Source of the DNA: Oligoflexales bacterium
Lineage (GTDB): Bacteria > Bdellovibrionota_B > Oligoflexia > Oligoflexales > JAPPIL01
Direction: 5' to 3'
NCBI GenBank assembly: GCA_965215515.1
Contig: OZ244057.1
Location: forward strand, 480,001-544,000
DNA length: 64,000 nucleotides
Below, one piece after another: positions 26,245 to 36,537 of this stretch; within the stretch, counting starts at the first letter, position 1; each line of letters begins with the position of its first letter. The position numbers and the translations under genes were made by a program. Under the pieces are notes generated by a model. It had not been told where the DNA came from and did not search any database. It saw only the letters and a program-made list of their open reading frames with translations.

Positions 26245-26462
26245 CATAGTACCCCCCCTCCCGTTGTTATTTACGATGTCTCAGGAAGGCTAATTTTGGT
26301 TGTTTAAGATGCGAAACTTAAAAAATACTTGCAATACTATACGAAGGCGGTGTACGTGTAACGCTTGTTGTTTTTATAAAACGGTAGCATAACCATTATA
26401 TGAAGGCACTTTTAAAAAAATAGCATCAGAAAGCGAAGTGATACTTGCTCAGGTTGGGGGTA

Positions 26463-29400
26463 ATGAAGGGTAAAGGGAAGAAAATCGCACATTTGCTCGC
26501 GGTAGTGTCTCTGCTGGCCAGTCCTGCGGCAGGGGATGATGAGCCGTCTGCCGCGAGTTCGCTTTTGGTGGAGGTCATTGCTGACGGCGATGCACTCAGG
26601 GGTGAGTTACTTACCAGCTTGCGTGGTCTGCAATATCCGCAGACGATCAACACCGCGGCCCTCGCCCCCGATACGGAACTGCTCGTGAGCATGACGGAAC
26701 GTGTGCTGCGCTGGAAGACGGCCCTCGAAGAGGCACTGCGTAACGCCTACGACACGGATAGCCGCGCTGCGGAACGCCCTGCCTATCTCGTCAATCTCTA
26801 CTTCGGCGTGTTGGCGAGCCTGATGCAGATGCGGCAGGTCGTTGTGCAGCATGTCGATTGGCGCACTATAGGCGAGCAGTTTACTCTGACTGTGCCGCTG
26901 GCATTGGTCTGGTCGCACAACCAAAGCCTGTCCCGCTTGTATGCTCAGCAGGTGCGAGTCGAGCAAGCGCTGGAAGAGGGGCAGGCACGCTTGCGCTTGC
27001 AGTCTGCTTTCGTCGATGGCTTGCAAATTGCCACACTCGCCTTGCGACCGAGCCGTACTAATCATCTCGCGGCGGTCAAATATCTTACCTATACCACGCT
27101 TTACAAGCAGTGGGTGCAGAACGAACACTATCGCGGGGCAGAAAAGACCACCCCACTACCGCCACTGCCGACACAGAGCGATGCTGGCTACGATCTCGGT
27201 TTGCGGGAAAGCATCATCGCCGAGCAGCGCGGGGCACATACTAGGCGGTTTCTGTTCGCCGCTTTGCTGGAAGCCCTACCGCGTCTGCAAGTGCCCGACA
27301 CGGGACTACAACGGCCGCTGCTGGCCAATTGGCCTCTCTACGAACAGCTGCAAGCGGCACATCCCGACATGACCGTCTTTACCACGCCTTCGTTGGCTCA
27401 GCAGGTGTATATCTTGCTGAACGACGAGCAGCGTGCCGCGCTGGCGGTCAACGACCGCGAGGAGATGCATCGCTTCATGCTGTTGGCGGAGCAGCTGTAT
27501 CTGCCGCTGGTACTGGAAAAGGATCTCCCCCGCGTTACCCTGCCTCTCGACGGTAGTGCTAACGCGGCACAGTTCTTGCGACAATTGCTGGTACGAGCAC
27601 GTTTCAGTGCCTTGCTCAATGCTCTGTCGCCGCTGCGTATTGCACGTGCCCAGGTCAAAACGCTGTTTGCCAGTCTGCAGGAACGGCAGACGACCATGCT
27701 TGCAGGCGGCGACAACCAAGAGGTCACCCGCTGGTACGAAACAGCTCACAAACGTATCCCTGAGATAAAGCGGCGCGCTCGCCTGGCATTGTTGCGGGAA
27801 GTGCTGTATGCGGCATGGAAGGTCGATACCGCCGAACGCAATGATGACGAACCGCTCAATGTGCAAATTCTGCGCCGTGCGTTGTTGCGCAGTATGTATG
27901 TCACCGACTTCAGCGGTGAATTTCAGCAATCGCTCGCGGCGATCTTGCAAACCAGAACCTACCCACAGGGCCGCGAGGTGTTTTTTAGCGAGCTTGCCCG
28001 TCATCTGCAACGTCTCACCCCCCAGTTCTCTCCCAGTGCTCAGGTTTTACGTCTCACCAGCCAAGACGACATCGTGCGCACTTACGTCAACCCTGCCCTC
28101 GCAGGAGCGGAGCTAGCAAGCGGCAAACAAGCCTGGCGAAGCGAAGCGGAGCGAGAGGGGGGAGCCGCCGCGCAGGCGGTGCAGCGCAAGACACTGCTTC
28201 ACCACATCACGCAGATCAAAGCACTGCTGCAGTACGGTTATTGGTTCGGCTATTTTTCTTCTCAAAATAACCCAAGACCGAGTATCGATGACTTACCTTT
28301 GAGTGCACGGCAGCGGGCTGATTACTGGAAGGAACTGCGTTTTGCTCACTTCGATCGCTATCCGTTCTTGCTCTTGTCCGTCGCGGCGAGTGAGGACAGG
28401 CGACCGTCGGCGACGGCAGTAAGCGCTGAAGCCTACGTCGAGAAAAAACAGTCGTTGTATAAAGTGCTTGCAGCCAAGCTGCGGGAGCGTGATCTGAGCC
28501 GTGTCGGCGATGAGGAAATCGCTAACTTCTGGCCGCTGATCGCCGAGGTGTTGGACAGTCAGCGGCAACGCATCGTCGTGGCATTACAAAAAATCGCGCG
28601 CGCCGATACGCTGCAAGACATCAAGCATCTCGCCGCCAATTCGCCTGTGGTGGCGATCGGGATGAAAGAGTTTGCCGCGCTTTATCCCTGGTATGAAAAT
28701 TTTGTGCACCGTTATCACCAACCTTCCAAGCTACAGCACAGTTGGGAACGTATCGATGTTACCTACGTCGGCAATTTTTTCACGGTCATTATCGGCTGGC
28801 ATCTCGGTGGTTGGTTGCTGCGCAAGTCCGTGCCGACCAGTTACTTGCTGCGCTATCTAACGCCAACCTTCGGGGCGATTTTGCCATATACCAATGCGTT
28901 GATGATGGCGTTTTGGTATGTGATTTTGGTCGATTATTTCGGGATCAAAGTTTGGCAAACTTTTGTCAGCAAACCGCGCAAGCTGGGTGAATTGCGGCAA
29001 TACTACTATCTCGGCGACCAAAAGGCGCAGTTTGTCAACCACACGTATCTCGATTATCTTGACATGGAAAAGACTTCACACATCTTCAATTATGGTCTTG
29101 AGGCGGCGATGCTCGGTCTTTTTGTCGGTTGGGCGGCTTACAGTCATCTCTTGCCTCACCTCGTGCCCAAGATAAAAGACGCTCGTCTACAACGTTTGTT
29201 TTCCCGCGTCGGTTTCAGAGACAAGAATGGTAAACCGCTCAGCGAGACAGAGGTGTCCTTTAACCGCGAAAACATCAAGGAGAGCGTGAGAGCGGAAATT
29301 GCTAATGTCGATGAAGCATGGCGGAAGGGGCAAATTTCAAAAAGATACGCCCAACAAGAAAAACATCAGATAGAGTTGGCACGTGATAAAATTTTCGCGT

Positions 29401-30194
29401 CGATGGCTAAAAAAGAGCGTGCTATCCGCGTCGCTGAGATTGAGCATACGCACGACTTTCGTGCCCTTGGCTTGCCAGACCCCGTCTTCAGTGCTGAGGA
29501 AATCAGTGCAGCACACGGAAAATTGGTAGGTTCTCTGCATGGCAAAAAAGATCTGTTATCCAATTTTGCCTGGCGAGATGCCAACACTGCTCTCATCAGC
29601 ATCCAAACATCGTTGCAGCGCCGCCTGAAGTTTCAGATCACCCGCCCTCGTGCCGCTGTCCACGCGGAGATCCGTCGTTTGAGTAAGGAGCATGCAGACG
29701 AGTTGCGGCTGTTTAGCATCGCCCCCAACAAAAGAAATACCTTCAGCCAGCGCACACTGAACGAAGTAGACAAGCACATCAACCAGCGTTTCACCCCCGC
29801 GCAACAGGTGGAAAGCAATCTAGAATTCCGTCGTTTCGATGAGGCGAGAAATGCCATCATCCGTGCTCTAGAGGAGTTGCACGCGTTTAGGATCGCCGAC
29901 GGTTGGCACAGTGCCATGTTTGAAGCGATTATCGAGCAGCGCTTCGGGAAAGTGGTGGGGGATAAAAGGCTGAAGGTGGAAGACGCTTTGCGAGGCTTGG
30001 GTATCGATATCGAAAAAACAGAGCTTGAGAGGCTGACGAAGGGGGAACGAGACGAAACGATCAAAAAAGCCTACAGAAAATTAGCGGTTAAATATCATCC
30101 CGATAAAAATCCGGGCGATAAAGAAGCGGAAGAAAAATTTAAAAAAATCACTGGACATTATAAATTTTTGAAAGAACATTATCAAATAAAATGA
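26463..30194 (+). CDS. Large exported/membrane protein with C-terminal DnaJ (J) domain
   Basis: Signal peptide [24 protein letters not shown]; about 3 hydrophobic segments around residues 770-900; C-terminal [28 protein letters not shown] with HPD at 30096-30104. Confidence 0.85.
28104..28155 (+). repeat. Single copy of the 39-bp element found at 2265-2417, inserted in frame
   Basis: GGAGCGGAGC-TAGCAAGCGGCAAACAAGCCTGGCGAAGCGAAGCGGAGC-GAG; 36/39 match to the reverse complement of unit A; encodes [18 protein letters not shown]. Confidence 0.9.
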
Positions 30195-32848
30195 TGTGTA
30201 AAGAGGTGGTAAGTAGAATTTGCGTTATTTTTTTGTTGTTATTGTTGGACTCGCCTGCCAGCGCGCAGGGCGATAGCGTCGTCTACCATCGCGATGCGAC
30301 ACGCGGCAAGGCATTGATCGATACCTACCTCGGCGCTTTTGCCGCGGGCGATGAGACGCGGGTGTATTGGCAGCGGCAACAGATTATCACTTACATGTTT
30401 GCCGCTTATGACCAGCATGTTTACACTACAACACTGCATTATCTGCACGGTTTTGAGCACACGCATCCCGATGCTGTGCTGGCTTTGAGCGATAGTTTGC
30501 AAGCGTATTGGGATAGCAATTATTTGCAGAGTTATCTCGTCGGCAGTGCGGCTGAATACGGTAAGTTGAAATTTCTCGCGACGCTTGGCATGGTTGGGGG
30601 TGGACTGGGATTGGTAAAAAATCCGCTTGCCTCGTTTGCCGCCTTGAAAGGTTTGAATTTCTTATTGCCGTTAGCGGGGGGTGTGGGCGCTTATTATGCG
30701 GTGGAATTTTTTCGCCAGCCTCTGCCCGATGTGCCACCTGAACCACAGCAGGTGCTGAGGTTCGCCAGGGGGGCGCGTTATTTTTCTTACGCGCAGCAGC
30801 GCAATGACTATCTCTATCGCCTGTTCGGTGTCGGGGTTGGGTTGGGTGCGGGGGAGTTTATTTTCCAAGCTCTCGGCGGTAATTTTTTGCGTCTGACTAA
30901 GCCTTCCAAAGGAGGGCTTGTCGCCCCTCTCGACAAGGAGGTGCGCCCGCCTAACCCGCCTAAGAAGTCATCGCTATTTAGGCCGCAGGCTAGCCGTACC
31001 TACTTCGCTCGTGCCGCGGGGGCGATATTGGGTATCTATCTGTTGTCTGAAGGCACGCATCGCTTGTTGCGTACCGTGGAACTACGTCGGACGGAAGACG
31101 AGTTGCAACGGGCGCGCCAAGATTTCCACGCGGCGTGCCACCGTGGTGACTCTCGGGAGCTGTTGGCAACCGCTAAGCGACTTGCTGAGACGACGGTACA
31201 GTTGGTAACACTCTATGAGATGCCACAGTTGCGGGCGATGGTTGAGTTTGAGCAGAAGTTTTCACAGCAGGCAGGGCAGCTAAGCAAAGCTACCGATGAG
31301 GAACTGCGCAGCAGTTTGCAGGACATGACGCTGAAATTGTCCAAGTCTCTGCAAGCTAAACTGACGCGGGCGATGGTGCGCAAAAACTATCACTACAACC
31401 GCGTGCCGCTGTTGCATGCGTTGAGCAAGGCGAGCTATACGCAACTCAGCCAGCATAATCGCGACTCTCGTGTGACCGAGCTGTTACAGGAGTTTGAGCA
31501 AGAGCATGCTGAAGAACTGCTGCGCCACAGCTTGGAGGCACAAGGAAGTGAGGCGGATCTTGACGAAAGGTTTCGTGCGTGGGTGGAGTTATCGCTGCGC
31601 GATCGTTATGCGCTGGCACAGCAGACGTTGGGGCAGGGTAAATTACAGCGCAACATCGAGTTGTTGTTTCAGGTGGCCGCGTTGTTCAAAGCTAGTGCAG
31701 ATGAGTACGATGTTGTTTTTTTGCCACACTTTTATCGGCAGTTGTTGGCGAAGTTTCAGAACATGCTGTTGATGTATCGTAATTTTGCGGCGATCATCGA
31801 TCACAACGCGGTTTGGCAGATGAAATTTTCTGCCGCTGAGCTAAATGCAGTGGTCGATCTTTATCTCGATTATGTTCAGGCTGACCGTGTGGCGGCGGTG
31901 TCTGCGCCACGCCCACACCAAGGTCAGGGACGCGAGGTGTTAACTTCGACGCGTGGTTTTGCTCGCTTTCTGGCGGAGTACATAGCTGCTCTACCGACCA
32001 AGTCTTACAACGAACTGCTGTTGCGTGTGCTCACTATCTATCGTGAACAGCCTGCGCAGCGTGCTGCGTTGACTGTCCTGCTGGAGGACGTGGCAGAGAA
32101 AGCCGAGTTGCACGACAGTTATTACGACTCGGTGGTGCTTGCGACGCTGGAGGGCAGTTTTATCGGGGCGGGGTTGCTGATGGTGACGCGTATGGGGGCA
32201 AAGTTAATGCATCTGCTCGGTGCAGATGTCAGCAAACCGCGTTTTCGCTGGATTGCTGCATTGCTGGGGACAGGTGGGGCGATAGACACCGCAGAGGGTA
32301 TACGCCTTTCGACCAGACAGCATTGGACACAACTCGGCAAGGTGGCGTTGGTGGGTGCTGCGGCGGGTTATGCTTATTATTTTGCGCAAAAGCTACGCAC
32401 GCACAAACTGCCCCCCGAGGCTGTGTTGTTCGAGGTGCAGAAGGAGATTACACTCGACCTCGCCTATCGTGCCTGCGTTTTGGCGCACGAGGTCGACGAT
32501 AGGGTTAGGGATAAGGACGAGCTACAGACCTACAGTGCCGAGCAGATACAGCAGGAACGTGAGGCGTTATCGGCTTTGGCCGCGCGGGTGAAGAAGATCG
32601 GCCAGCAGGCTCAGCACCTGAGCGAGAGTGCTCCGAGCTTGCGTGGCAACCATCGGGTATCTTTACCGCACGCTTATCGGAACACTGACAATGGCCAGTG
32701 TTCCCCCCAGGTAGCGACTGAGGGGCAAACTGTCGTCAGTATTACACCGCTGGTACAGGACATTGCCCACATCGCTGAGCAACTACAAGCGTGGAAGCGG
32801 GCGATGGATGTTATTGAATATCGCCGTTTAACGCAACGAGGTAGCTGA
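30191..32848 (+). CDS. Large exported helical protein with Gly-rich hydrophobic hairpins
   Basis: Overlaps the previous stop (ATGA); signal peptide ..[17 protein letters not shown]; hydrophobic segments [60 protein letters not shown]. Confidence 0.8.
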
Positions 32849-32964
32849 GAATACGATGTTGGTGATTACCATAAAAATAGTTGTTGACAGCATATGTCGG
32901 TGGTGATAGCGACCATGGATCGGTGTTGTGTGACATTTAATCTATGATTTTTATAGGAGTGGTG

Positions 32965-34884
32965 ATGAGGTTTTTAGCGGTCGTGTTGGGATGCGCACTG
33001 TGGCATGGCGATGTGGTGCGCGCCAAGGGGCGGGGAGCGACGGGTTTAGCTCGGCGTGTTATCGGCATCGACTTGGGTACAACCAATTCGGCCATGGCCT
33101 GGGTGGACAAGAATGGTGCGCTGACTATCATTCGCAACCTTGAAGGTAGTAACATAACACCGAGTGTGGTTGACCTCGCTGAGGGAGGGGGTGTCGGTGA
33201 GTCTGCGTTAGAGTCGTTGGGGTTCTCGCCAGGGAGCGTAATTTTCTCGGTCAAGCGCCTTATGGGGCTTAGCTACGCTGAGTTGCAGGAGAGCAACCTC
33301 GCTGGAAACCTTCCCTACCAGGTCGCAGCGGGTGAAGGTGGAGTGGCCATCATAGAGGTTGACGGCCAGCAGTATTTGCCGCAGGAGGTTGCGGCGCGGG
33401 TCTTAGCGAAGCTCAAAGCAGATGCCGAAAGCGTGCTCGGCGAGGATATAAGTGAGGTGGTGATTACCGTCCCAGCTCGTTTTGATAATCGCCAAAAGCT
33501 TGCCACCAAGGAGGCGGGCGAGATCGCAGGCTTGCGTGTGCTCAGGCTGGTGGCCGAACCGACCGCCGCTGCTCTGGCGCACGGTCTCGGCAAGGGCGGG
33601 GAGAACCTTGTCGTTGTCTTCGATTTGGGAGGCGGCACGTTTGATGTCTCCGTTCTCGACATGGGGTATGCGGGTGAGGGAGAGGAGATGAGCGAAGTAC
33701 TCACCACCGAAGGTAACCCATTGCTGGGTGGCGATGACTTCGACAACAGGATTGTGCAACATCTGCTCGCTAAGTTGGAAAATAAACACGGGGTGGATGC
33801 AGTAGCCGAGTTGCGCAGTGACCAAGAGGCGATGGCTGAGTTAAAAATGGCGGCAGTCAAGGCAAAAGAGGCACTTACGGGCGGCAGAAGAGCGAATATC
33901 AGGATTAGAAATTTGGGGGAACAGTCGCTTACTGTCAGCGAGACTCTTACCCGTGTGGAGTTCGAAGGATTAATCGGTGATCTCGTTGCACAGACTATTG
34001 CCATGACCGAGAAGGCCTTGGCTAATGTCGAGATGGTTGCCGCGGATATCGACAAGGTGCTGATGGTCGGTGGTTCGACTCGTGTGCCCGCGGTCAGCGA
34101 GGCGGTGGAAGCACTGTTTGGCGTTGACAAGATAATCCGTGAGGACAATCCCGATGAAGTTGTGGCACTGGGTGCTGCGGCACTAGGGGGCGTGTTGGAG
34201 GGAAGTATCGAGGGTGTAACGCTGCTTGACACCACTTCCATGGATCTTGGTATCGGAGTGTTGGGAGGTAGATTCGAGGCAATCGTTGCGAAGGATACCA
34301 CCATCCCCACCGAAGCCCAGAAAACCTTTACTACCGCGAAAAATAACCAAACGTCGGTGACAATCCCTGTCTATCAGGGCGATGCCGAGCTGGTTGAGCA
34401 CAACGAGAAGATCGGTGAGTTTACTCTTGAGGGTATTCCACCTGCACCGCGTGGGATTCCGCAATTAGATGTGATCTTTGAAATAGATGCCAACAGTCTG
34501 CTTAAGGTCACCGCTAGGGATAAGGGCACAGGGAAGGAGAAGGAGATTACCGTAGCCGCCAATGCTATCGGTGAGGAGAGGATCGCGCAGATGCGCAAGA
34601 ATCTGGAAGAAAACAGCGAGAGGATCGAGGCTAAATTGAAATTGCTGGACGCCAGGGACAAGCTCAACAGCCTTTTGGCGCAGGCGGAAGGGGTGTTGAA
34701 TCAGGGAGGCACCGCAGCCAAATTACCGTTAGAGGCGAAGAACTCTTTAGAGCAGGCTATCGCCGCGGCCGAAAGCGCTGTCAACAGTAAGGATGTCGCG
34801 GCTATCGAGAAAGTCATCGCGGGTTTTGAGGCGCAGATCCACGCCGTGACTACTGAGCTCTACAGCCAGGGGGAACAGGGGTAG
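32965..34884 (+). CDS. dnaK: Hsp70/DnaK paralogue with N-terminal signal-peptide-like extension
   Basis: GIDLGTTNS, TPSVV, VITVPA, EPTAAAL, DLGGGTFDVS, LGGDDFD, VGGSTRVP, NPDEVVALGAA, PPAPRGIPQ; AGGAG RBS before ATG 32965; TTGACA at 32884. Confidence 0.92.
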   Translation: MRFLAVVLGCALWHGDVVRAKGRGATGLARRVIGIDLGTTNSAMAWVDKNGALTIIRNLEGSNITPSVVDLAEGGGVGESALESLGFSPGSVIFSVKRLMGLSYAELQESNLAGNLPYQVAAGEGGVAIIEVDGQQYLPQEVAARVLAKLKADAESVLGEDISEVVITVPARFDNRQKLATKEAGEIAGLRVLRLVAEPTAAALAHGLGKGGENLVVVFDLGGGTFDVSVLDMGYAGEGEEMSEVLTTEGNPLLGGDDFDNRIVQHLLAKLENKHGVDAVAELRSDQEAMAELKMAAVKAKEALTGGRRANIRIRNLGEQSLTVSETLTRVEFEGLIGDLVAQTIAMTEKALANVEMVAADIDKVLMVGGSTRVPAVSEAVEALFGVDKIIREDNPDEVVALGAAALGGVLEGSIEGVTLLDTTSMDLGIGVLGGRFEAIVAKDTTIPTEAQKTFTTAKNNQTSVTIPVYQGDAELVEHNEKIGEFTLEGIPPAPRGIPQLDVIFEIDANSLLKVTARDKGTGKEKEITVAANAIGEERIAQMRKNLEENSERIEAKLKLLDARDKLNSLLAQAEGVLNQGGTAAKLPLEAKNSLEQAIAAAESAVNSKDVAAIEKVIAGFEAQIHAVTTELYSQGEQG

Positions 34885-34905: not shown

Positions 34906-35568
34906 TCACGGGTGGGGGCGGTAGCGGTCGGGATGATAATCGATCAAGGCGGTATCGGGGTGAGCGAGATCGCTGCTGTCGCCGAAAGCATGCACGGTAA
35001 GCAAACCCTCCCGCACGGCTACTTCTTCGGCACGCGGCTCTGCCTTCATGTAAGCCAGACAACCGAACAGACGCATGCCCGCACAGCTCGGCAGATTGAT
35101 ATGCGGTGACGAAGCCTGCCAACGCGTATAACTGCGCAGATATTTGCCCAGAAAATACTTAACGTCACCCACCGTCAACGTTGTCTTGGTCTCGACGATG
35201 ACTATGTCCCGCTCCCCTGAAACGATGATGTCGATCTGTCCGTCTTCAGGCTTGCCGTCCTCATCCTGACAACGCACGCCGACATTGGGTAAGGCATCGT
35301 CGACGTGGAGATCGTGATGGCGGTTGAGGGTGGTAACGATGCCCGACTCGATGACAAACTCGGCTAGCTTGCCCCACATGTCGTACAACTTGCCCGTTTC
35401 TACCGCTACCACGCGGCGGTGCTCCTCCCGATCTTTGACACGCTGGGCATCGTACTCCTTGCGCGCCGCGATACGCTCCCCGCGCTCCTTCTCCAAGGCA
35501 GCCTCAAAAAGCGCGGTGAACTGTGCCAGCTTTTTGTCGATGTACGAGGGCTCTTTGTCCGCGCTCAT
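34906..35568 (-). CDS. Coiled-coil plus PD-(D/E)xK nuclease-fold protein (DUF3782-like)
   Basis: Charged N-terminal helix, WGKLAE, GQIDIIV..IVIVETKTTL; GAGGA RBS. Confidence 0.75.
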   Translation of the reverse strand: MSADKEPSYIDKKLAQFTALFEAALEKERGERIAARKEYDAQRVKDREEHRRVVAVETGKLYDMWGKLAEFVIESGIVTTLNRHHDLHVDDALPNVGVRCQDEDGKPEDGQIDIIVSGERDIVIVETKTTLTVGDVKYFLGKYLRSYTRWQASSPHINLPSCAGMRLFGCLAYMKAEPRAEEVAVREGLLTVHAFGDSSDLAHPDTALIDYHPDRYRPHP

Positions 35569-35709
35569 CAGCGGGTGTCCTCGCTAATGATAAACATCAC
35601 CCCAGTCATTATACCAGCTCCGCGCCGACCAGCAAGTTTTTCTGCCCCCTACTCAGAGACATCTACATCGTTGCGAAAAGCTGGCAGGTGTATTATTTTC
35701 TCAGGTGGT

Positions 35710-36537
35710 ATGGGTTTCGTTGTTTTCGTTTTTCAATTTCTGCCGCGGCGGCTCATCTCCGCACTGATGGGCGTGTTGTTTCGCTTCCGTTGGCCGTCTC
35801 CTTTGCGTGGGGTGGTCTACGGGTTGTTTGTGCGCCTCACTCGTATCGATATGCGCGAGGCCGAGCGGGAACTCAACGTTTATCAAAGCATCGAGGAGAT
35901 TTTTTCTCGTCGTCTTGCACAGGGAGTGCGTCCTATTGCAGGCGAGATCTGTGCCCCCGTCGATGGTTTTTTGCACTGCTCGCAAGCACCGACAGGTATC
36001 CTCGGCTTTCAGGCCAAAGGCTACTACTATTCCTTACGGGAGTTGATTTATGGTGAGAGCGAGATTGAGTTTGATTTCGAGCCAGCTTGGTATATGACCT
36101 TCTACCTTGCCCCGCACAACTATCATCGGGTGCATTGTCCGCTGGCAGGGGAACTGCATGCCTTGCGTTGGATTCGCGGCGATAAGTGGCCTGTGCAGCA
36201 TGGTTTCCGCAATGCGGTGACACGTCTCTACGTGCGCAACGAACGCAAAGTATTTCGCCTGCGGCATACCGTCAGTGGGGGACAGATGTTCGTGGTAATG
36301 GTAGCGGCACTGGGAGTGGGCAACATGGTCGTTACCGCAGCCGAAACTCAGGAAAACAAGGCGGTGACTAAGTTCGATCCCGCCGTGCAACTCGCCGCAG
36401 GAGACGAGCTGGGCTACTTTACCTTGGGATCGACGGTACTTTTGATCTGCGATCAAGTGCTGGCCGACACTTACAGTTTTGTCGCGACAACACGAGATAT
36501 GCCTGTTACAATGGGGACTTCTCTTCTGAAAAAATAG
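35710..36537 (+). CDS. psd: Phosphatidylserine decarboxylase proenzyme
   Basis: FSRRL..RPI, APVDG, QAKG, YLAPHNYHRVH, RNER, GYFTLGSTV autocleavage motif. Confidence 0.92.
   Translation: MGFVVFVFQFLPRRLISALMGVLFRFRWPSPLRGVVYGLFVRLTRIDMREAERELNVYQSIEEIFSRRLAQGVRPIAGEICAPVDGFLHCSQAPTGILGFQAKGYYYSLRELIYGESEIEFDFEPAWYMTFYLAPHNYHRVHCPLAGELHALRWIRGDKWPVQHGFRNAVTRLYVRNERKVFRLRHTVSGGQMFVVMVAALGVGNMVVTAAETQENKAVTKFDPAVQLAAGDELGYFTLGSTVLLICDQVLADTYSFVATTRDMPVTMGTSLLKK

Follow-up and report, generated by a model that had tools for sequence, protein, structure and literature searches.

Why should a bacterial Hsp70 begin with a conserved hydrophobic leader, and on which side of the inner membrane would such a protein work? 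The question is raised by a 64,000-nt stretch of DNA (the window: positions 480,001 to 544,000 of contig OZ244057.1, forward strand) from the genome of an uncultured Oligoflexales bacterium, assembled as a single contig of 2.18 Mb, in which a preliminary description had noted a DnaK with an N-terminal extension and had proposed a specialised, exported Hsp70 paralogue. The gene is the last of a three-gene cluster on the plus strand, and because its leader is conserved and it shares an operon with two envelope membrane proteins, one of them bearing a J domain, we propose that what the locus encodes is probably no ordinary DnaK but a chaperone machine of new design that is bound to the membrane. 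We lean, at slightly better than even confidence, toward a cytoplasmic Hsp70 whose N-terminus tethers it to the inner membrane or to membrane helices of its partners and which is activated by the J domain of gene 1. The first half of the earlier proposal stands, as the genome holds a separate DnaK and this protein scores below the NCBIfam cut-offs for DnaK and HscA, forms its own clade and sits in a dedicated operon; export finds no support in the context, although the leader has the form of a signal peptide.

The gene start and the leader are laid out as follows.
32955-32959, plus strand: Shine-Dalgarno (SD) sequence AGGAG, read from the sequence, 5 nt (TGGTG) upstream of the ATG at 32965
32965..33024, plus strand: Hsp70 leader, residues 1-20, consisting of M-R, the core FLAVVLGCALW, H-G-D and V-V-R-A
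33025..33057, plus strand: basic Gly/Ala-rich linker KGRGATGLARR, residues 21-31, from the alignment
33058..34884, plus strand: Hsp70 body, with nucleotide-binding domain (NBD, residues 32 to about 415), linker, beta-sandwich substrate-binding domain and helical lid (Pfam HSP70, 4.6e-163)
34213-34236, plus strand: interdomain linker GVTLLDTT, residues 417-424, from the translation

The AGGAG ribosome-binding site named in the preliminary description is seen where it should be, ahead of the ATG at 32965, from which the N-terminus translates as MRFLAVVLGCALWHGDVVRAKGRGATGLARR and continues into VIGIDLGTTNS (residues 32-42, 33058-33090). The longest open reading frame (ORF) opens 7 codons earlier, at an in-frame ATG (32944) without an SD-like motif; in-frame GTG (codons 7, 17 and 18) and TTG (codon 8) are present further in, none of them with such a motif upstream, and between the leader start and the NBD of this genome's gene there is no in-frame ATG, as had been stated. 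Residue 31 of the Hsp70 aligns with residue 3 of solved Escherichia coli DnaK, so the extension before VIGIDLGTTNS is real and amounts to about 28 residues. Its layout is a hydrophobic core of 11-13 residues, then G-D, V-R-A and a basic stretch, and AlphaFold2 (AF2) renders it as a free helix of low confidence over residues 2-25 (predicted local distance difference test score, pLDDT, at most 52), unpacked against the body.

Behind this leader lies a complete Hsp70. The product of 639 aa, whose coding region runs through the stop at 34884 without an acidic tail, matches Pfam PF00012 at 544.1 bits (cut-off 20.6) over profile positions 1-598 of 599; its AF2 model contains all three domains (pLDDT 80.5, predicted template modelling score 0.76), and among solved structures it comes closest to full-length E. 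coli DnaK. The ATPase motifs GIDLGTTNS, KR, EPTAA, DLGGGTFD, GGDDFD and VGGSTR are all found in alignment and translation, as the earlier claim of intact nucleotide-binding motifs implied. The genome's separate, canonical DnaK reaches 820.7 bits with Pfam HSP70 against 544.1 for the leader-bearing protein, and comparison of the two confirms the other peculiarities that had been listed: PAYFNDSQR, DVLLLDVT and an acidic tail in the former, PARFDNRQK (residues 170-178), GVTLLDTT and no acidic tail in the latter. Among NCBIfam models, the protein falls below the equivalog cut-offs for DnaK (NF001413, 585.2 against 648; TIGR02350, 553.8 against 822.55) and below those for HscA (TIGR01991, 447.8 against 708.55; NF003520, 452.8 against 620). 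No HscC model is among its NCBIfam matches, and it exceeds the 550-580 aa given for HscC in the available excerpts of PMC8215388; an insertion in the substrate-binding domain and a djlB or djlC gene alongside are further marks of HscC, and the neighbour here is likewise a J protein, though of a different architecture. A quick tree, midpoint-rooted and leaving out HscA and HscC, places this lineage (type A) in its own clade with support 99, consistent with the paralogue proposed earlier; the Hsp70 of genome G003, from a sister genus, is sister to it on a long branch, and the type-B Hsp70s described below are very divergent.

Compared with the genome's DnaK, the protein also shows a 5-residue gap at about 33870-33900 (residues ~303-313), in the loop ...LPFLTADQSGP.... 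The excerpts of PMC8215388 place the GrpE-signature motif at DnaK residues 290-295 and give it as missing in HscA; the gap lies roughly at this motif, the numbering being mapped only approximately, and an Hsp70 with the loop so gapped may be independent of GrpE.

The leader is shared well beyond this genome. Two congeneric orthologues (genomes G001 and G002) open with the same leader, MKFLAIALIFALWGSDAARA and MRVLTMALVLALWQGDAARA, and it is present in 9/9 further orthologues from protein databases at starts annotated by their own gene callers, one of which was annotated with a start 8 codons further upstream. Counted over 10 distinct type-A sequences, position 2 is Lys or Arg, position 16 Asp or Glu and positions 18-20 A/V-x-A, preceded by G/S-D/E, in all ten, position 13 is Trp in nine, and the uncharged core spans 11-13 residues; with respect to the n-region, the h-region and the A/V-x-A, the earlier likening to a Sec signal was fair. 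All four genomes for which DNA was at hand (this one, G001, G002 and G003) carry an SD-like motif ahead of the ATG that opens the leader. Within the leader's 20 codons, the nonsynonymous and synonymous differences per site (pN/pS) were 0.26/0.78, 0.23/0.51 and 0.20/0.41 in three genome pairs, and pN below pS indicates purifying selection in this reading frame. The preliminary description had named two outcomes that would count against it, translation from a downstream GTG and a leader absent from orthologues, and neither was borne out, as the in-frame GTGs lack SD-like motifs and the leader occurs in 10/10 orthologues. Outside the lineage it was not found: the 7/7 other Hsp70 paralogues of the order that were fetched begin 2-9 residues before GIDLG and have no leader, which makes it specific to this Hsp70 lineage. 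Pairwise identity among orthologues is 0.63 in the leader and 0.64 in the mature Hsp70, whereas the signal peptides of the two partners reach 0.44 against 0.74 and 0.48 against 0.66 in their mature parts, a contrast whose use in favour of a tether is weakened by the fact that the three sets were drawn from non-identical genomes.

Two further kinds of signal were considered for the leader and rejected. A lipoprotein signal (signal peptidase II) would depend on Cys10 (V-L-G-C), which is found only here and is Phe or Leu in 9/9 other orthologues, and a Tat signal is at odds with an n-region of only M-R or M-K and a conserved RR that lies 9-10 residues after A-x-A.

Downstream of ...LARR, the protein of this genome alone lacks 26-49 linker residues (L-x-K/R..., KQ-x-LAGMNV) that are present in 9/9 other orthologues. 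In those orthologues (P0031-P0039) a conserved Met stands 9-11 residues before GIDLG (...LAGMNV; ...GTMSV in P0039), within the segment lost here, and could serve as a second start that yields a leaderless cytosolic isoform; no SD-like motif precedes it in G001 or G002.

The two genes ahead of the Hsp70 supply its context.
26463..30194, plus strand: gene 1, an ORF of 1243 aa (P0040), with an upstream TTG at 26445 as alternative start
26463..26534, plus strand: gene 1 signal peptide, from the translation, with a family hydropathy peak over residues 1-26 and acidic DDEPS next
28764..29165, plus strand: the three hydrophobic segments of gene 1 with their loops, residues 768-786, 805-831 and 874-901, from family-averaged hydropathy of 18 sequences
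30036..30176, plus strand: gene 1 J domain, Pfam PF00226, residues 1198-1244 in TTG-start numbering, with HPD at 30096-30104
30191..32848, plus strand: gene 2, an ORF of 885 aa (P0003), with a signal peptide at residues 1-25, six Gly-rich hydrophobic segments and two large helical domains

The stop codon of gene 1 and the start codon of gene 2 share nucleotides (ATGATG), 116 nt lie between gene 2 and the Hsp70 gene, and the same three-gene order is found in G001 and G002; between 26000 and 35600, promoter-like and terminator-like matches were at chance level, the latter no commoner than in shuffled sequence. Gene 1, whose database orthologues are annotated from the same Met, comprises a signal peptide, a helical domain of ~740 aa, three hydrophobic segments and a basic tail of ~340 aa that ends in the J domain (Pfam DnaJ, 2.8e-16, 59.8 bits against a cut-off of 27.8, HPD present). 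Its AF2 model (mean pLDDT 71.6) consists mostly of helices, and fold searches with the whole-chain model, which a known fold in single domains may have escaped, returned no Foldseek match in the PDB at E 0.001 or better and, in the wide VIA-align search, only generic helical hairpins (Z at most 9). The J domain superposes on that of Tim14 with Z 6.9, a root mean square deviation of 2.2 over 56 residues and 27% identity, within the chance range for helical models. The gene 1 of this genome falls short of 11/12 close orthologues by ~80-140 aa ahead of the J domain, the twelfth (P0048) having 1136 aa; this genome is the smallest of its genus, and the shortened Hsp70 linker and gene 1 may be part of genome reduction.

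Gene 2 has no Pfam, NCBIfam or PADLOC family, its 26 homologues are all unnamed, and its signal peptide is followed by acidic QGDS. A profile search of 1.84 billion representatives returned 75 proteins at E 0.001 or better, which include two groups of remote, unnamed relatives that each cover one half of the protein: one of ~410-570 aa, matching profile positions ~30-490 and also carrying signal peptides, and one of ~330-400 aa, matching positions ~575-810. As the remote relatives split into two half-matching groups, gene 2 may be a fusion of two modules. None of 20 remote relatives had a credible Pfam family (18 had no match and 2 had chance-level matches far below cut-off), ten were named "hypothetical protein" or not at all, and the ESM Atlas gave no usable match for gene 1 or gene 2. 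An anti-phage defence system was considered for the locus and rejected, as none of the three proteins had a PADLOC match.

On which side of the membrane, then, would the Hsp70 meet its J domain? In gene 1, the loop after segment 1 has 18-21 residues with 2-5 Lys or Arg and no acidic residue in 18/18 relatives (net charge +3 here), the 41-residue loop after segment 2 is about neutral, and the flank after segment 3 holds 5-9 Lys or Arg against 2-5 Asp or Glu. If the N-terminal domain lies outside, these charges obey the positive-inside rule throughout and the tail comes to lie in the cytoplasm, and we predict that the J domain is cytoplasmic and the large helical domain periplasmic. For gene 2, hydropathy and loop charge predict an N-terminus outside, six segments and the two most basic loops inside (one of them +9/-2), which would place its domains of 357 aa and 150 aa outside.

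The paralogous and sister-genus systems bear on the same question. G001 and G002 hold a second, divergent copy of the whole operon (type B) with the same three genes. The type-B Hsp70 begins with a leader (MKFRNKILVMLLTMTLASQGLA), from which ~14 charged residues lead to a hydrophobic helix of 19 residues (YIIAGLVTVGVVVAGVVGV), with the NBD following behind a basic flank, and two hydrophobic segments before the NBD would leave the ATPase in the cytoplasm whether or not the first is cleaved; the gene-1 paralogue has a J-like end without HPD. In G003 the Hsp70 gene is unlinked from the other two, the gene-1 homologue has no J domain, and the Hsp70 opens with the leader MLRVIGLILLVSSWQLQAFA, followed by Pro and a basic linker of 55 residues, with no ATG between leader and NBD. 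The leader is thus present in modified form both in the sister genus and in the type-B operon.

In the mechanism that we favour, the Hsp70 would be a dedicated, ATP-driven motor that sits on the cytoplasmic side of the inner membrane as one of three proteins in an envelope complex. The leader core and the basic stretch would hold it there permanently, whether by forming a short anchor whose basic flank stays inside or through contacts with membrane helices of the partners. The J domain of gene 1 would recruit the Hsp70 and trigger ATP hydrolysis, gene 2 would contribute a six-segment membrane protein with its bulk in the periplasm, and the substrate-binding domain would grip cytoplasmic segments, either of a client or of the complex itself, and pull or remodel them. 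A predicted complex of the gene 1 tail (340 aa) with the Hsp70 scored 0.09 against a mark of 0.32, and carries no weight either way.

Several observations weigh against this tethered, cytoplasmic arrangement. None of the classical hallmarks of a cleavable Sec signal peptide is missing from the leader, its core of 11-13 residues is too short for a normal membrane span, and a basic n-region normally keeps the N-terminus inside and sends the chain that follows out. The gene 1 segments average just 1.0-1.5 on the Kyte-Doolittle scale across the family, a moderate hydrophobicity, and are helical in the AF2 model at pLDDT 30-40; were segment 3 not to span the membrane, the J domain would be periplasmic, and it is to the periplasm that the predictions assign the bulk of both partners. 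Nor is the J domain itself uniformly kept: among the gene-1 relatives P0040-P0054, HPD is retained in 10/15, reads H-S/T-D in 2/15 and is lost in 3/15, and it is absent from both type-B gene-1 proteins and from G003. With HPD partly lost, stimulation by the J domain is not universal in the gene-1 family, and in part of that family J-domain signalling seems, to judge by the motif, dispensable.

The best-surviving alternative takes the leader at face value, as a true Sec signal cleaved after V-R-A, so that the Hsp70 would be exported and would act in the periplasm or beyond on the large periplasmic domains of its partners. The n-region, the core, the helix break and the A/V-x-A are indeed kept in 10/10 orthologues, all three operon proteins open with signal-like peptides, most of both partners is predicted to be periplasmic, and segment 3 of gene 1 is weak and poorly modelled, while two segments instead of three would put the J domain outside. 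Against export, the region behind the putative cleavage site is unusually basic for this genome, in contrast to the acidic residues behind the signal peptides of both partners: the first five residues after A-x-A carry a net charge of +2 and the first 15 one of +4, values reached by 16/317 and 8/317 signal-like N-termini genome-wide (the top 5% and 2.5%), in a set that came from a crude, home-made gene call and cleavage rule and to that extent lends the tether less than the ranks suggest. The neutral or acidic mature start expected behind a Sec signal is missing from the Hsp70, and in G003 the residue after A-F-A is Pro, which after a cleavage site blocks signal peptidase I. The charge pattern of gene 1 favours a cytoplasmic J domain, the topology of the type-B paralogue puts the NBD inside, and the leader is far better conserved than the signal peptides of the partners. 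The intact ATPase motifs, too, speak for a compartment that holds ATP, and no route by which ATP reaches the periplasm is known to us. That such ATP might be gained by energy parasitism was considered and set aside, as no match to a TLC ATP/ADP translocase was found in the genome, in a search that had no positive control and therefore shows little. Taken together, we regard export as unlikely, while granting that it is favoured by the classical form of the leader and by the predicted periplasmic bulk of the partners.

A more specific version, in which the leader is a working Sec signal, segment 3 of gene 1 does not span, and the periplasm houses the Hsp70, the J domain and both partners' large helical domains, seems to us distinctly improbable. 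Were it true, the system would be a bacterial counterpart of BiP/Sec63 and the first case in bacteria of an ATP-type Hsp70 machine beyond the cytoplasm, and it would require either an ATP supply of a kind not yet known or an action independent of ATP.

A third explanation would dispense with the membrane altogether, the leader being a built-in pseudo-substrate that occupies its own cleft or that of a neighbouring molecule and serves auto-inhibition or self-assembly. DnaK binds hydrophobic cores with basic flanks, and the composition of the leader fits, as do its high conservation and the free, low-confidence AF2 helix that is not packed on the body; yet AF2 does not dock the leader in the cleft, and neither the true membrane helix added in the paralogue nor the tie of the gene to two membrane proteins would be explained, so that we hold this to be very unlikely. 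Least credible, to the point of being barely worth entertaining, is an annotation artefact in which the extension lies outside the mature product and translation starts at GTG codon 17 or 18 or at the ...AGMNV Met of the orthologues, for although in-frame GTGs exist here and that Met stands 9-11 residues before GIDLG in 9/10 orthologues (all but this one), no SD-like motif precedes these codons while one precedes the leader ATG in 4/4 genomes, G003 has no ATG between leader and NBD, the GTG positions read GCx (Ala) in G001 and G002, and the leader is under constraint (pN < pS) and kept in 10/10 orthologues.

The system is narrowly distributed. An orthologue of the Hsp70 was found in only two of 40 related genomes, both congeneric (64% and 59% identity), the best match in the remainder being canonical DnaK at 47% identity or less; the gene-2 family occurs in 4/95 genomes of the order and 4/131 of the phylum, all of one family, and two scans of JGI metagenome contigs yielded no occurrence of the system. 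The present genome holds a decayed second copy on the minus strand (G000:C1 ~834,600-836,850; L044 2624-3763 and 4259-4849), in which a chimeric frame of 379 aa is made up of the N-terminal ~125 residues of a gene-2 paralogue, a piece from further along that protein and a fragment of a type-B Hsp70 NBD, with a 196-aa fragment of a gene-1 paralogue nearby. A helicase-like ORF of 737 aa that resembles Cas3 in its motifs adjoins this copy. Beyond the Hsp70 itself, the window continues with an ORF of 220 aa (34906-35568, minus strand) that has no Pfam family and overlaps by 150 nt the longest frame of a phosphatidylserine decarboxylase (35419-36537, plus strand), whose true start probably lies further downstream, since its Pfam match begins only at residue 159.

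Among known systems, the closest functional analogue, as far as likeness of arrangement and the excerpts of PMC8215388 can tell, is E. coli HscC (Hsc62) with DjlB and DjlC. Bacterial Hsp70s are described as soluble, cytoplasmic proteins. According to those excerpts, prokaryotic Hsp70s are of three types (DnaK, HscA and HscC), targeting or signal sequences on Hsp70s are mentioned for organelles only, and HscC has the tail-anchored DjlB and DjlC as its partners at the plasma membrane (PMC8215388). Both systems set a specialised Hsp70 beside a membrane J protein, and the E. coli one is thought to act on membrane proteins at the cytoplasmic face (PMC8215388). In contrast to it, the Hsp70 itself bears a hydrophobic leader here and is of DnaK-like length with a lid (639 aa), the J protein is no small, tail-anchored protein but one of 1243 aa in which a signal peptide and three segments accompany a large domain predicted to be periplasmic, and a membrane protein of 885 aa completes the set. 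As with DnaK and DjlA, the latter an inner-membrane protein with an N-terminal anchor and a weak NCBIfam match to the gene 1 J domain, a C-terminal J domain on a membrane protein would recruit the Hsp70; DjlA, however, serves the housekeeping DnaK and lacks any large domain in the periplasm, whereas here the partner is a private paralogue below the DnaK equivalog cut-offs. The pairing of an Hsp70 that has an N-terminal targeting peptide with a membrane-embedded J protein at a membrane complex also recalls BiP/Sec63 of the endoplasmic reticulum and mitochondrial Hsp70 with Tim14 (Pam18), Tim16 and Tim44, but those motors work on the far side, in compartments that import ATP, while the J domain here is predicted to be cytoplasmic, and genes 1 and 2 share only the J domain with Sec63 or Tim44, to judge by the Foldseek search, which gave no match at E 0.001 or better. 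HscA, the Fe-S cluster Hsp70, too, has an N-terminal extension and a shortened loop at the GrpE-signature motif; its extension is of ~17 residues and is not described as hydrophobic in the excerpts (PMC8215388), and no Fe-S genes lie near the Hsp70 gene here.

The locus is thus a variant of the theme of membrane-localised Hsp70 and J protein, found in one bacterial family only and built with two partners of no recognised family, and our search of the open-access literature, including the excerpts of PMC8215388, turned up no account in which a bacterial Hsp70 carries a signal-like leader. It adds an Hsp70 lineage that has a conserved hydrophobic N-terminus, gains a full membrane helix in a paralogue and is tied to two large envelope proteins. 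If the Hsp70 is exported, it would overturn the rule that only ATP-independent chaperones work in the periplasm; if it is cytoplasmic, it would represent a new coupling of Hsp70 force to an envelope-spanning complex and would offer a compact model for the positioning of Hsp70 at membranes by J proteins.

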